Shown: positions 54,001-60,000, numbered from the stretch's first letter. The stretch: DNA of 64,000 nucleotides from Occultella glacieicola (GCF_004353825.1 NZ_SMNA01000004.1:434001-498000); one strand, 5' to 3'. Numbers: made by a program.

Positions 54001-57000
54001 ATCCGGCGGATCGTGACCGACCTGGGCGACCACCCGGCCGTGGTCGGCTACCAGCTCGACAACGAGCCGGGCCTGCTGCTGCTGCACAACGACGCCGTCT
54101 TCGCGTCGTTCCGCACCTGGCTCGCCGAACGGTTCGACGGCGTCGCTGACCTGAACGACCGGTGGGGGCTCGCGTACTGGTCGCACCGGCTGTCCACCTG
54201 GGCCGACCTGTGGCGCCCGGACGGCAACGCGCAGCCGCAGTACGCCCTGGCCTGGCGGCTGTACCAGGCCGAGGTCGTCGCCGGTTTCATCGGCTGGCAG
54301 GCGGGCATCGTGCGCGAGCTGGCGCGGCCGGAGCAGTGGCTGACCACCTGCATCGCCTACGACCGGCCGGCCGCGGACGACCTGCGGATCGCCGCCGAGC
54401 TCGACATCGCCTCCGGGAACGCCTACTACCGGATGCAGGACGGGCTGCGGCACCCGGCGCCGGTGCGCCCGCAGGGCTGGATGACCGACGGCACCTGGAG
54501 CGTGTTCCTGTCCGCCGACCGGATGTTCGGCTCCCGGCGGGCACCGTTCCTGGTCACCGAGACCAACGCCGGGGCGATCAACGTCGCGAACGTCAGTGAG
54601 CCCGGCTGGGACGGGCAGTGGCGCCAGGCGGCGTGGGCGATGATCGGCCGTGGCGCCCGGCTGATCGAGTACTGGCACTGGCACACGGCGCACTTCGGCA
54701 CCGAGACGCACTGGGTCGGGGTGCTCCCACATGACCAGCGCCCCGGCCGGGTGTACCGCAACATCGCCGAGCTCGGGCAGGAGATCCGGCAGCTCGGGGA
54801 GCGGGTCGCGGCGACCACCCCGGACGCCGACGTCGGCCTCGTGTTCTCGACCCCGTCGAAGTACGCCCTCGCCTTCGAACCGGTCTTCGGCGACGAGCGT
54901 CCCGCGCCCGCCTCGCGCAGCTACCAACGCCTTGTCGAGGCGTTCTACCGGGGTGCCTTCGACGCCGGGCTGCAGGCTCACGTGCTGCACGACCGGGCGC
55001 TGCCGAGCGGCGCCGAGCTCGCCGAGCAGTACCGGGTGCTGATCGTGCCGGGCCTGTACGTGAGCCCCGACGGGGTGCTTGCGACCCTGCGCGACTACGT
55101 CGCCGCGGGCGGCCACCTCGTGCTCGGCCCACGCACCGGCTACGCGGACGAGTGGGCGGTGGCCCGCCGCACCCCGCAGCCGGCCGGCCTGGCCGACCTC
55201 GCCGGCGCGTCCTACCAGGAGTTCACCACGCTGACCGAACCGGTGCCGGTCACCGGTCCGGACGGCGGCCGCCTCGGCGCCGCCGAGGGCTGGGCCGAGC
55301 TGCTCGAGGCCGACGACGCCGAGGTCCTGGCTCGCTACGACCACCGCGAGCTGGGCGCGTTCGCGGCGGCGACCACCCTCGCGCGCGGAGCCGGCCGGGT
55401 GACCACGGTGGGCTTCGCACCCGACCCGGGCGCTGCCGTCGGGCTCCTGCGGCAGGCCGCCGACCGCAGCGGCCTGACGCCGTTCACGAGCCGGGCGGCG
55501 TCCGTCACGCACTCCTCCGCCACCGGCCCGCAGGAGCGGGTGCACTTCTACTTCAACTGGTCGGGTGAGGCCGTCACGATCGACTGGCCGGAGGGCCAGA
55601 GCGACCGCGACGGCGGCCGGCAGGGCGCGCTGGCGCTGTCCGGCTGGGACGTCCGGTTGCTCTGGGAACCGCTCGGCGGGCACTGAGCGGCACTGAGCGG
55701 CACTGAGCGGCCCTGAGCGGCGGGGTCAGGACCGGGCGAGCGCGATCCCGCGCCGCTCGCGCTGCAGGTAGGAGCCGATCCGGACCGGCTCGGTCAGCGG
55801 TGCGACCGCGCAGTAGTAGTGCTCGAGGCGGCCACGGTGGGTGATCACGGCGGGTTTGTGCGCGTAGGTGGCGTCGACGGAGCCGGGGCCGCCCATGTCG
55901 ATGAGGACCTGCTCGGACCGGTGCCAGGTGCGCAGGTCGCTCGAGTGGGCGAACGTCTCCCGGGCCCGGCCGTCGCTGCAGAGGCCGAAGTAGAACATCA
56001 CCCAGCGGTCGCCGTCCCACAGCACGCACGGGTCCGAGGCGAACCGGTCGTCGAGCGACCCGGGCGGCCCGTTCCGGACCAGCGGCCCGTCGCCGACCCG
56101 CTCCCAGCCGAGCAGGTCGGCCGACCGGGCCGCCCCGGTCTGCTCCTGCCAGCCGCGGGGCGAGGCGTCCTTGGCGTTGTAGAACAGCCAGAACTCGCCG
56201 TCGGTGTGCATCAGCCAGGACTTGTACAGGCCGCCCCGCTCCCAGGCGCCGCCGTCCTCCGGGCGAAGCTGCGCCCCGTACTCCTCCCAGGTGCGCAGGT
56301 CGCGGCTGCGGACGATGCCGACGATGCCGGGGCCCGCCTCGTAGCCCGCGGCCGGGTAGGCATGGAAGGTGCCGTAGTACCAGCCGTCGATCGCGAGCAG
56401 CTCGCCGTCGCCGCGCAGGTCCACGTCGCGCACGATCGAGGTGAGCGCCGCGTTGTAGCGGCGGTGCGGGGAGTCCGGGTCCCGCCCGAGGATCAGTTCC
56501 GGTGTGGACCAGGACGTCCCGTCGAACCAGGACAGGCCGGTCTGGTAGCCGAGGCCGTCCCAGCCGACGACCGTCATGCCGAGCCGCCCCCGGTGGTGGA
56601 ACACGAACGGGCAGTCGACGCCGTGGGAGTGGAAGTCGCCCTCGCGCAGAGTCGGCGCGAGGACCAGTTCTGGTTCCTTGTGCGGGGTCGCGAGCCGGGT
56701 CGCGAGGTCGGCGCTCATGTGGTTCTCCTTCGGGCGGGTGCGTGGGTCAGGGTCGGGCCGGGAAGCCCTCGGCGACGGCGGCCCATCCCTCGGGCAGGTC
56801 GACTCGCCGGGGTAGGCCGTCGGGCTCGACCCAGCCGCCGAACAGCAGCGCGGCGGCCATCAGCAGCCCGCCGTTGCCGGGCAGGTACAGGGGCATCCGG
56901 TGCGGCACCTGCCGGTTGTGGCCGTTGGCCAGGAAGGTGTTCTTGTCCTCGCCGCGCACCAGCGCGTCGAGGGCGATGTCGGCGCGGCCGAGCCGGGTGG

Positions 57001-60000
57001 CGCACATCGCGATCATCGGGAAGTCCCAGCCCCAGGCGCTGCGCCACTCCCACCGTTCGCAGGCCCGCTGGAGGGTGCGCAGCATCGCCGGGTGGTCGAG
57101 GGCGCCGGTGTCCGGCACCACTCCGAGCGCGCCGAGCATCGAGGGATGGTCGGTGAACACGGTCCGGGCCGGGTTCGCCACCGCGTCGTAGCACCCGTCC
57201 GGGCTGAGCACCGGGCGCAGCCCGGCGGCCACGTCCGCCCACTCCTGCGGCTGCTCGCGACCATCGTCCCGACGCCAGCGCAGCGCCACCTGCAGCGCCC
57301 ACCGGACGTAGGCGACCTCGAACAGCGGGTCCCAGGTCTCGCGCGCCCCGTACACCTCCTGGGCGGGCATCAGCGGCGGCGGCAGGTGGTACGCGCCGTC
57401 CTCGCCGAGCAGGGCGAACGAGGCGAGGAACTCGGCAGTCTCGTCGACCAGGCCGCGGTAACGCTCGCGCACCCCGGCACCTCCGGCACCCGCCCCGGTC
57501 CGCAGCAGTTCCGCGTAGTGGATCACGTGGGGCTGTTGCCAGAGCAGCAACGGCCCGATCTCGTTCGGGCTCTCGACCCCCTCCGGGCCGACGTGTTTGG
57601 GCCACCGGGCACCCCGGAAGCCCTGGGACGCCGCGGTGCGGCGGGCGACCGGCAGGATCGTGGCGTACCAGGCCAGGCTGCGCTCGAGCAACTCCGGGCG
57701 GCCCCACGCCGGGAAGTGCGCGGCGTGCCACCAGTGCATCTCGAGGTGGAACGTGCCGCCCCAGCTGTTGCAGACGAGCCCGGTCTCCTGCGGCGGGGTG
57801 CTGCCCGAGCAGTGCACCTTCGTCTGGTACTGGGACAGCACGATTCGCCGTTCCAGCTCGCCGGCCCCGGCCGCGCTGCTGGCCCCGAGATCGACGGCGG
57901 CGCCCGACTCCCAGAAGTCCGCCCAGCCCTGGGCCGAGTGGTCCAGCACCGCGGCCGCGTCGTCGAGGACCTCGGTGCCCAGGGCGGGGGCGAACTCGAC
58001 CACGGCGGCGAGCCGCGGCCCGGTCGCCCGCAGCTCCCAGGCGTGCCCGTCCCCCGCGACGGCGACCCCACCCGCAGCGCGCACCTGGTACCGGGCCTCG
58101 TCCAGCCGGCGGTCCCAGACGACGGTGCCGCCGTCCCGGTGCGCCGTGGTGATGTGGGCGTCGGGTCGGTGCCAGACCGGGGGCGCCTCGAAGCTCTCCT
58201 CCACGGACGGGAAGGCGATCCCGACGGCGAGGCGTCCGCCGGCGAGCAGCGGCGAGTCGATCTCGAACGCGACCGCGTCACGCTCGGGGTCGACGGCGGT
58301 GCGCACCCGCACGTCGACACCGGCCAGGGTGAAGGTGCTGGTGACGACGCCGGTCCAGAGGTCCAGTTCCTGACTGCCGGCCCGCACCTGCTCCCAGGCG
58401 GGTGCCCGACCGTCGAGCAGCAGCCCGATCCGGGCCAGGTGCAGCCGCTGCGGGTTCGTCCAGTAGTAGTAGCCGGCGGCGCGTCCGGACGCCTCGGAGG
58501 CCTCGCGGTCCTCGCGGAAGTCGTACGCGGTCGGGTACTCGACCGGGCCCCGCGGGCTCTCGTAGACCTCCATGGTGTCCTCGAGCCGCCGGCCGCGGGG
58601 GTTCGGTGCCCAGTGGTAGCCCCACTGGGCCTGGGTGCCGAGCGGCATCGCGGCCTCGCCGCGCTCGCGGGCGGCGCCGCGTTCGTAGCGGTCGGCGAAC
58701 GTCTGCAGACCGGTGTGGTCCACGGTGAACGCGAACTCGCCGTTGCCGACGGACACCGGTTCCTCTGGCCGGGGCTCGGTGTAACGGATCGTGTGGCGGC
58801 GGACAAGGGCTTCGCGGTCGATCACGAGGGGACTCCGGGGCTGAGGGCAGACGTGGTGGTGAAACGTTTGTGCAGATCCTTGCCAACGCCGTTACCATCC
58901 GAGGATGGTGACGCTGCGGGATGTGGCCGGCCACGCCGGGGTATCGGTGTCGGTGGTCTCACGCGTGCTCAACTCCGACCCGTCGATCCGGATCCGCCCC
59001 GAGACCCGCAGCCGGGTGCTCGAGTCGGCGCGGCTGCTGCGCTACGCGCCGAACTCCGCGGGACGTTCGCTGCGCCGCTCGCGCACGCACCTGCTCGCGC
59101 TCGTGGTCCCCGACGTCACGAACGCCACCTTCACCGACCTGGTGAACGGGGTGGAGTCCCGGGCCCTCGACCATGACTATTCGGTCCTGCTCGCGTCCAG
59201 CCCGCGGATGCAGCCCGGCAGCGACGGGTTCAACCGGCTCCTGAACGAGCGGCTGGTGGACGGCGTGCTGCTGCAGAAGGGGGACGAGGCGCCGATCGAG
59301 CTGGTTGCCCGGGCGCTGTCCCACCCCGAGCGGACCGTCCTGATCAACTCCGGCCCGGTGTCCGGCGTCGCCACGATCGCGATCGACGACGTCGCCGCGG
59401 GCGTGCTCGCCACCCGCCACCTGCTGGACCTCGGGCACACCGGCATCGGCTACGTCGGCGGCGTCCCGGCCTCCGACACCAGCGACCGGCGGCAGGCCGG
59501 GGTGGTGCGCACGCTCGCCGACGCGGGCCTGACGCTGGCCCGGGAGCACACGACGGCGCTGGGCTACACCTACCGGTCCGCCCGGGACGCGGCCCGGTTG
59601 CTGCTCAGCCGCCAGCCGGCCCCGACCGCGCTCGTGGTCGGCAACGTCAACGCCGGGATCGGGGTGCTCACCGAGGCGGCCCAGATGGGCATCCGGGTGC
59701 CGGACGAACTCTCCGTGGTGGCGATCCACGACATCTGGCCGGCGATCACCTGCGCGCCGGCCCTGACCACGGTGCGGCTGCCGATGGCGAGCATGGGGGC
59801 AACCGCGGTGGACGTCCTGCTCGCCGGGCTCGAGACCTCCGACGGCGACGGCACCGACACGACCAGTCGGGTGGTCGACGACCCGGCCCCGGAGCTGGTG
59901 CTGCGCGCCTCGACCGCGCCGCCACCCGGCTCCTGACCGACCGTCCCACGCACTCCTCCGGCGCCGCGCGCTGCTCTCGGCCAAGGACGCGCAACTCGGT

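Follow-up and report, generated by a model that had tools for sequence, protein, structure and literature searches.

The 692-residue product of a minus-strand gene in the window (the whole 64,000-nucleotide stretch of the Occultella glacieicola genome analysed here) is probably a metal-free inverting exo-glycoside hydrolase that cleaves a terminal neutral sugar from pectic oligosaccharides that contain rhamnose and represents a separate family of the GH65/GH95/GH139 (alpha/alpha)6 group. We infer its catalytic roles, the inversion and the substrate from residue mapping and gene context. The ORF itself is confirmed as a real gene lacking annotation in Pfam and NCBIfam. GGAG is located 7 nt 5' of the GTG start, and the N-terminal motif is kept in the family, with R4 found in 110/119 aligned members. 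The gene and its neighbours are arranged as follows.

41395..44166, minus strand: homologue of GH138-type alpha-D-galacturonidases, an RG-II chain A enzyme type (NF049878)
48494..52050, plus strand: FGGY kinase, xylose-isomerase-like protein and sugar-binding regulator, resembling apiose catabolism
52201..53547, plus strand: GH140-type apiosidase (PF13204, E 9e-101)
53587..53596, no strand: second TGAAACGTTT site, 5' of the GH42 gene
53629..55686, plus strand: GH42 enzyme (PF02449, E 4e-82), convergent on the hydrolase operon
55726..56718, minus strand: beta-propeller of 330 aa, 28 bp 3' of the hydrolase gene, like the N-terminal arabinofuranosidase part of BT0996
56747..58825, minus strand: candidate glycoside hydrolase gene, ORF of 692 aa with a GTG start, beta-sandwich plus (alpha/alpha)6
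58860..58869, no strand: TGAAACGTTT, a LacI-operator-like site between the hydrolase and repressor genes
58905..59936, plus strand: repressor, presumably LacI-type from its sequence, divergent from the hydrolase gene, with the same layout in loci L111, L112, L116 and L117
60461..62406, minus strand: Gfo/Idh/MocA oxidoreductase and L-fuconolactonase-like amidohydrolase, oxidative sugar catabolism

Together with a canonical GH95, a GH2, a GH78 and a GH127 in the next 22 kb beyond the window, the GH138, GH140, GH137-like and GH42 genes point to a rhamnogalacturonan-II (RG-II) locus. GH139 and GH141 are absent from this locus, and PF18961, for the N-terminal DUF5703 of GH139, is unmatched across the host genome. 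The GH138 homologue scores 860 bits over the full length of NF049878, for which the cut-off is 1300 bits. The propeller had been called GH32-like in the first-pass annotation; it does match GH32 (E 1.3e-10), but scores better against the BT0996 model in its N-terminal part (NF049877, positions 29-336 of 1400, E 1.7e-21, far under the cut-off), for which the name GH137 is used. The propeller gene adjoins close hydrolase orthologues or sits one gene off in 8/9 loci. The hydrolase gene had also been placed under the LacI repressor, the gene for which runs divergently on the opposite strand. The TGAAACGTTT site between them is unchanged in four of five aligned intergenic regions and has one mismatch in the fifth, and AAACGTTT occurs twice in the window vs 0.03 expected. 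The gene context supports the earlier proposal of action on a plant-wall oligosaccharide and sharpens it to rhamnogalacturonan, RG-II here and RG-I in Bacteroidota.

As first reported, the protein is unmatched by any family, the best hits being PF03632 (GH65) in Pfam (E 0.052; 13 bits, cut-off 27) and kojibiose hydrolase in NCBIfam (E 0.13). PDB sequences gave no match at E<=10, and PF22124 (GH95) none at E<=1; PF22124 reached E<0.01 in 2/37 relatives, both below the cut-off. The ESM Atlas search returned clusters that are unnamed or automatically named only and no model. The counts of representatives were exactly reproduced, with 2247 at 1e-3 and 462 at 1e-30; 1248 match at 1e-10. Profile comparisons indicate that this family of 2247 clusters is cleanly separated from GH65, GH95 and GH139. 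Members score 719-1089 bits on the family profile, on which those three families reach <=50 bits. Conversely, 181 members score <=25 bits on a GH65 profile of 7 sequences (its own members >=836 bits), and members score <=21 bits on a GH95 profile (23 sequences) and <=30 bits on a GH139 profile (4 sequences). Besides Bacteroides, the family occurs in bacteria from rumen, soil and fresh water and in one fungus or more, and its plasmid-borne members are named hypothetical by RefSeq. The distribution is patchy: in a phylum sample, 0/300 other genomes had a member at E<=1e-30 with 3 candidates scored per genome. The window's protein is cytoplasmic, as had been stated, but the family as a whole is not, since 47/119 aligned members have at least 15 extra N-terminal residues, many of which resemble signal peptides as judged by eye.

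The high-confidence AF2 model was obtained again from the 119-sequence alignment (pLDDT 97.5, pTM 0.96). Foldseek likewise returned 7fe3 (E 1.5e-25, TM 0.68) and GH95 chains (TM 0.66-0.70) at identities of 10-16%. Structural comparisons (VIA) of the model gave Z scores of 40.8 with the GH65 hydrolase 7fe3 (r.m.s.d. 2.9 across 580 residues, identity 15%), 29.0 with GH139 and 24-28 with GH95. The model shows the GH65 order of beta-sandwich, linker and (alpha/alpha)6 barrel, and hhalign to GH65 gave 99.1% (E 1.2e-18). On the predicted model, GH65 hydrolases are the nearest fold.

In the profile alignment, the PAQE490 motif falls on chain residue E469 of 7fe3, read as Glu472 because the numbering is shifted by a constant 3, a shift that locates Glu616 as well. 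Glu472 and Glu616 are described as the acid and the base of FjGH65A (PMC8626586). Glu490, kept in 111/119 aligned members and 181/181 locus-derived members, is the likely general acid, at the GH65 Glu472/E483 site. Neither the Asn-x-Asn base nor the activating Asp of GH95 (N421/N423/D766) is found; the sites hold His360-Leu-Glu362 and Pro649, and Asn is absent in both registers. Pro649 lies in YLPGN, which corresponds to QIDGN of GH95, and is kept in 117/119 members. This replacement of the GH95 Asn/Asp pair by Glu362/Pro649 suggests that Glu362 is the likely catalytic base. Glu362 matches the aspartate of the GH65 W-D pair in a gap-free alignment. In a control GH95 model, the residue preceding Asn387, the base equivalent, is the first of a helix, and the second helix after it starts 15 residues on; in the hydrolase model, the helix begins at L361 with E362 as its second residue, and the corresponding helix spacing is 16. 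The register of Glu362 rests on the GH65 alignment and this helix comparison, because the GH95 profile alignment places His360, rather than Glu362, on the GH95 Asn. Glu347, Asp601 and Glu503 are as conserved as Glu362, and each could be the base. Glu347 and Glu503 as the catalytic pair are disfavoured, with E503 mapping to a helix position beyond the acid loop. Among the residues called invariant in the first-pass annotation, Trp305 remains so in the wider alignment, but Glu347 and Glu503 are kept in 114/119 and His433 and His560 in 110/119.

The -1 pocket may resemble that of GH95: W355, H560 and W600 match by motif, and the second His site (H-P-P-F-Q) is unconserved. The GH139 Gln-Asn pair and Glu472 are replaced by His/Glu and Lys410. 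In GH139 (F378) and GH95, the residue corresponding to Glu347 is hydrophobic and belongs to the methyl pocket; this speaks against a 6-deoxy sugar bound GH95-style. GH65 is described as having a conserved -1 subsite quartet of W/D/K/Q (PMC11442529); L361/E362/D559/H560 stand at those sites here. All four phosphate ligands of GH65 phosphorylases (Lys/Ser/Ser/His) are replaced, by T348/W598/G599/Y647 as mapped through M330/P575/A576/F625 of FjGH65A. Hydrolase and phosphorylase had been considered indistinguishable; these replacements make a phosphorylase unlikely. Basic residues K/R358, R407 and K410 are conserved in the family. Five pocket-proximal positions (126, 356, 358, 411 and 421) differ in the window's clade, which has Thr at 358, and the core residues are invariant among members from differing gene contexts.

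The proposal of an undescribed family between GH65 and GH95 holds in that the family is large, unannotated and separate from both by profile scores, but its placement in clan GH-L does not. The clan list quoted in PMC11442529 comprises GH15, GH65, GH125 and GH178, and GH95 is absent from that list. PMC8626586 places the base Glu of the clan in the loop that joins helices 11 and 12. Across the 119 aligned sequences, this loop has conserved N629, G635, H636, N637, Q639 and Y647 and no conserved acid; the only acid-rich column, 625 (70/119), lies ahead of the loop motif, and the query has Gly there.

Among 36 genomes of the host taxonomic family, 11 carry GH138, and all 11 carry a hydrolase member; two close orthologues occur in genomes without GH138 (G022 and G029). 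In Bacteroides, 53/101 genomes carry a member and all 53 carriers have a BT4145-type GH106 (RG-I rhamnosidase), compared with a member in 0/34 genomes without GH106. Same-contig pairs lie <=50 kb apart in 39/43 cases. This co-occurrence is overstated because related genomes are not independent. Neighbours in 80 Bacteroidota loci include GH106 (25), GH88/105 (20), GH28 (15), GDSL esterase (12), pectate lyase (11) and rhamnose isomerase (7), and members are fused to BT4151-type GH2, GH28, GH28 plus GH88/105, GDSL esterase, oligogalacturonate lyase and GH43. Asticcacaulis and Chondrinema members lie inside or close to pectin clusters. A pectin marker was present in 21/80 metagenome loci, scored against a 36-protein reference set; 2/4 plasmid loci are without pectin genes (MFS plus GH3; GH97), as are the loci of five actinobacterial paralogues (46-51%). 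The Bacteroides genomes checked have both the hydrolase family and GH139. A stretch of a Bacteroides member was found in 15 RNA records among 24, as contigs with coded metadata from which no level or substrate is readable. A fucose-operon link in three rumen loci was given no weight, the gene in between being a ribonucleotide reductase. Identity with BT1010 was rejected: the Bacteroides RG-II cluster gene two places from GH140 and beside GH88/105, the position that we take BT1010 to hold, is a canonical GH95 (822 aa, PF22124 E 4.5e-179), and the host locus encodes its own canonical GH95.

We propose that the substrates would be imported RG-II side-chain fragments in the window's actinobacterium and RG-I fragments in Bacteroidota. 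Glu490 would protonate the oxygen of the glycosidic bond, and Glu362, at the position of the Asn used by GH95 and GH139, would activate the water directly, so that their activating Asp would be unnecessary. The GH95-like -1 pocket would be lined by Trp355, His560 and Trp600, and Lys410 may hold an acidic +1 sugar. The sugar released could tentatively be alpha-L-rhamnose; alpha-L-fucose, 2-O-methyl-fucose or L-galactose is almost as likely, another neutral sugar slightly less so, and galacturonate improbable. In the Bacteroides loci, rhamnosidase activity is already supplied by GH106, which counts against the proposal.

It is very improbable that the protein is a divergent enzyme of the GH65 type, hydrolysing or phosphorolysing alpha-glucosides within clan GH-L. 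GH65 gives the top structural and profile matches, and several UniRef entries carry the automatic name 'Glycoside hydrolase family 65', but the glucose-binding quartet, the phosphate ligands and a conserved acid at the Glu616 site are all missing, members score poorly on the GH65 profile and the context is pectin. It is unlikely, though less so, that the family has already been described: CAZy would then list it as an outlier of GH95/GH65 or among its recent families, and a paper outside the literature searched might characterise one of its members. The family is large and frequent among gut Bacteroides, and the literature search, which found no description of it, mostly did not reach subscription papers. 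However, it was unmodelled in Pfam and NCBIfam in June 2026, although NCBIfam models many B. thetaiotaomicron pectin enzymes; no member is in the PDB, the plasmid members are hypothetical in RefSeq, and the gene in the BT1010 position is the 822-aa GH95.

The GalA-(1,2)-Rha linkage is common to the backbone of RG-I and chain A of RG-II; an alpha-D-galacturonidase acting on it would suit both contexts with a single linkage, and the fusions with GH28 and GH88/105 and the conserved basic residues fit it. However, whichever binding mode is assumed, the conserved E347 and E362 both map beside the C6 position of the -1 sugar, the loci already hold GH138 and GH28, and Thr stands at 358 in the window's clade; we regard this reading as improbable. 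Equally small is the chance that the family comprises glycosidases of broad specificity and that a non-pectic glycoside is the substrate of the window's clade. Non-pectin contexts do exist and the clade differs at the five pocket-proximal positions, but it lies in RG-II-type loci with the GH137-like partner in 8/9 relatives, and the core is invariant across contexts.

Pectin breakdown has been modelled almost entirely on one gut species. An unannotated family so widespread in Bacteroides and other bacteria suggests a missing pectin step, and the window shows an actinobacterial RG-II locus from which two of the known route's enzyme families are missing. We tentatively propose that these proteins form a glycoside hydrolase family that is new, has a catalytic pair of its own and bridges GH65 and GH95/GH139. 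It would add a pectin step that the B. thetaiotaomicron model lacks: in roughly half of the Bacteroides species an RG-I linkage, and in soil actinobacteria an alternative RG-II route that dispenses with GH139 and GH141. In its boldest version, the enzyme may cleave a linkage for which no enzyme is known; the 2-O-methyl-xylose-fucose bond, to our knowledge the single RG-II bond that B. thetaiotaomicron does not break, would be one example. If Glu362 is the base, one barrel would have shifted its nucleophile activator among carboxylate, Asn and phosphate. Since it has no signal peptide and a high-confidence model, the hydrolase is a practical assay target. New glycoside hydrolase families turn up regularly, and this one is solid rather than startling.

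The hydrolase shares the (alpha/alpha)6 barrel and an acid on the helix 5-6 loop with clan GH-L, but the helix 11-12 loop carboxylate of the clan has no conserved counterpart. GH65 hydrolases (the FjGH65A alpha-1,2-glucosidase 7fe3 and human PGGHG) have the same domain order, size and acid site, and the phosphate site is absent in both. However, their Glu616-type base is lacking in the hydrolase family, their W/D/K/Q is L/E/D/H, the +1 Trp391 site is Lys and the context is pectin. The GH95 alpha-L-fucosidases/L-galactosidases (AfcA, BT1010 and BACOVA_03438) share the fold, the acid site, pectin use and the motifs W355, H560 (HRH His), G599-W600 (GWS Trp) and G650-N651 (DGN). BT1010 is described as acting on RG-II chain A (PMC10154630). 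Unlike GH95, the hydrolase has His360/Glu362 for Asn421/Asn423, Pro649 for Asp766 and Glu347 for the Leu before QG; it is ~120 aa shorter, and the same locus encodes a separate canonical GH95. The GH139 2-O-methyl-alpha-L-fucosidase BT0984 shares the fold, stacking Trp, acid site and RG-II context, but its Gln411/Asn412, Glu472 and Phe378 correspond to His360/Glu362, Lys410 and Glu347. Because the host genome is without GH139, the hydrolase could fill the GH139 step.

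g03199 is one of three features that need to be located here (L numbers denote retrieved loci):

56747-58825, minus strand: g03199, hydrolase gene, 692 aa, GTG start with GGAG 7 nt upstream
41395-64000, continued in L131 and L255 (contig C18 to its end): near-complete actinobacterial degradation locus of the rhamnogalacturonan II (RG-II) type
L107:12125-15385 and 33 other loci, and L218:24567-27932: DUF4450 protein, 1040-1160 aa

The GGAG and a conserved N-terminal motif support g03199 as a real gene. As the first-pass annotation claimed, no family is found above cut-off (best E 0.052 in Pfam and 0.13 in NCBIfam) and the family comprises 2247 representatives at 50% clustering. 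A search of PDB sequences gave no match, and 5686 of 8000 candidates scored at 90% clustering are members. The named members belong to Actinomycetota, Bacteroidota and Alphaproteobacteria, with a fungus as one further source; the host genome has a single copy. A literature search covering few subscription papers found no description of the family. We consider g03199 rather likely to be an inverting pectin exo-glycosidase of a family undescribed in Pfam, NCBIfam, PDB and the literature searched, with a predicted Glu490/Glu362 catalytic pair. The sugar released would most likely be L-rhamnose or an L-fucose-type sugar.

A profile built from 119 members scored 181 locus-derived members at 719-1089 bits, compared with at most 50 bits for seven GH65, 26 bits for 23 GH95 and 16 bits for four GH139 sequences. 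The reverse profiles of GH65, GH95 and GH139 scored family members at no more than 25, 21 and 30 bits, respectively. Structural alignment of the AF2 model (pLDDT 97.5) ranked the GH65 alpha-1,2-glucosidase 7fe3 at the top (Z 40.8, rmsd 2.9, 580 residues), followed by the human GH65 hydrolase PGGHG (34.8), kojibiose phosphorylase (33.6), GH139 (29.0), a GH15-type enzyme (28.6) and GH95 (24-28). As modelled, the family is a separate one within the GH65/GH95/GH139 barrel group, with a backbone nearer GH65.

The active site was mapped from alignments and published residue roles, the roles in GH65, GH95 and GH139 being those in PMC8626586, PMC11442529, PMC12282258 and PMC10154630. The general acid site maps to Glu490, the predicted general acid, which is present in 111 of 119 aligned and all 181 locus members. 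The four residues that bind phosphate in GH65 phosphorylases align with T348, W598, G599 and Y647, which makes a hydrolase much more likely than a phosphorylase as judged from the aligned residues. The glucose-binding W/D/K/Q of GH65 is replaced by L361/E362/D559/H560, and the alignment showed no conserved acid among family members on the loop bearing the clan GH-L base. Thus, membership of GH65 or clan GH-L fails. The earlier interpretation is partly supported, standing as to a separate family in the GH65/GH95 barrel group but not as to clan GH-L. W355, H560, G599-W600 and G650-N651 resemble GH95 motifs, whereas neither the Asn that serves GH95 as base nor the Asp that partners it is retained, with QIDGN of GH95 becoming YLPGN. 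For the mapped Trp residues and the Leu, we assumed the numbering of the GH95 fucosidase AfcA.

The residue on the GH95 Asn site is ambiguous, being Glu362 in an ungapped GH65 alignment and His360 in a GH95 alignment with gaps on both sides. In a control model of a canonical GH95, the helix begins one residue ahead of the Asn equivalent to the base, and the next helix but one follows at +15 residues; the corresponding helix of the g03199 model begins at L361, and there the spacing is 16. This comparison of models favours Glu362 over His360. Glu362 is proposed to be the general base, acting directly; Glu347 and Asp601 are alternative candidates. Glu347 aligns with the methyl-pocket residue of GH139 and GH95. 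This position makes a uronate less likely, and likewise a 6-deoxy sugar held in precisely the GH95 manner. Lys410, which all 181 locus members have, aligns with Trp391 at the +1 subsite of GH65 and with Glu472 in GH139; its role may be to bind an acidic aglycone.

The DUF4450 protein is the most frequent neighbour of the family in 80 Bacteroidota loci retrieved with a Phocaeicola member, which are of unequal length and mutually related (34 loci), followed by GH106 (25), GH88/105 (20), GH28 (15), GDSL esterase (12), pectate lyase (11) and rhamnose isomerase (7). It recurs near a family member in Asticcacaulis, shows weak six-hairpin (GH78/MGH1-like) matches, is not named in the literature searched and is probably a second uncharacterised pectin glycosidase. 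Within Bacteroides, 53 of 101 genomes carry the g03199 family, all 53 together with a GH106 of the BT4145 type; the 34 genomes lacking this GH106 have no member, and 14 GH106-positive genomes are also without one. Same-contig pairs lie within 50 kb in 39 of 43 cases, and only 28 of the 53 carriers have GH138. Natural fusions join the family to BT4151-type GH2, GH28, GH28 plus GH88/105, GDSL esterase, oligogalacturonate lyase, GH43, polysaccharide deacetylase and tannase. Against a pectin role count the metagenome loci, of which only 21 of 80 showed a pectin marker (a small reference set); two of the four plasmid loci examined (10 found) and five actinobacterial paralogue loci had no pectin genes. 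From one context to another the core residues do not vary, and the window's clade deviates at 126, 356, 358, 411 and 421, which suggests release of the same sugar from a different aglycone. Prevotella members in five loci (L036, L066, L069, L073, L081) are ~1170 aa long, their C-terminal extension matching only TSP3 repeats.

The LacI gene is divergent from the hydrolase gene. A TGAAACGTTT site lies between the LacI and hydrolase genes and is kept in relatives, and a second lies upstream of the GH42 gene; therefore, the GH42, hydrolase and GH137-like propeller genes probably form one small regulon. Set against the structure of RG-II chain B, the regulon partners would fit its non-reducing end, where the alpha-1,2-rhamnosidase and methyl-fucosidase steps are unfilled. 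The methyl-fucose becomes accessible once arabinofuranose and rhamnose are removed, according to PMC12282258.

The glycosidase genes in the window (GH138-type and GH140-type, beside apiose-catabolism-like genes) and in the next 22 kb (canonical GH95, LacZ-type GH2, GH78 and GH127) are an RG-II enzyme set. Directly after GH138 (39689-41398, minus strand) lies a 569-aa protein with an N-terminal hexapeptide acetyltransferase repeat fused to ~380 residues without a Pfam match; it follows GH138 in L258 and L261 as well. Between the LacI and oxidoreductase genes (60040-60480) are intergenic imperfect direct repeats, two long copies with 'gagatcggacc' and short 'ccccccgccgtc' units, shorter or missing in relatives. 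The operon at 60461-63978 and L131:1979-3181, oriented as the GH95 gene, encodes a solute-binding protein, MaoC dehydratase, lactonase, Gfo/Idh/MocA oxidoreductase and CoA-transferase III, and may constitute an undescribed pathway for one of the RG-II sugars. Reading frames at 4465-9189 look transposase-like in translation.

Family members occur in 16 of 36 genomes of the host family, including all 11 GH138-positive ones; two close orthologues lie in genomes without GH138. The characterised RG-II system is that of Bacteroides. Matches to GH139, GH141 and GH143/142 were not found in the actinobacterial locus, nor GH141 in the host genome and four relatives (0 of 5), nor a GH139 domain in two actinobacterial genomes (the host and G016). 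A GH106-like gene lies ~400 kb from g03199, and in two congeners the GH106-like match is under the cut-off. A BT1010-type L-galactosidase was rejected as the identity of g03199, because a canonical GH95 occupies what we take to be the BT1010 position in a Bacteroides RG-II cluster and the host locus has a canonical GH95 of its own.
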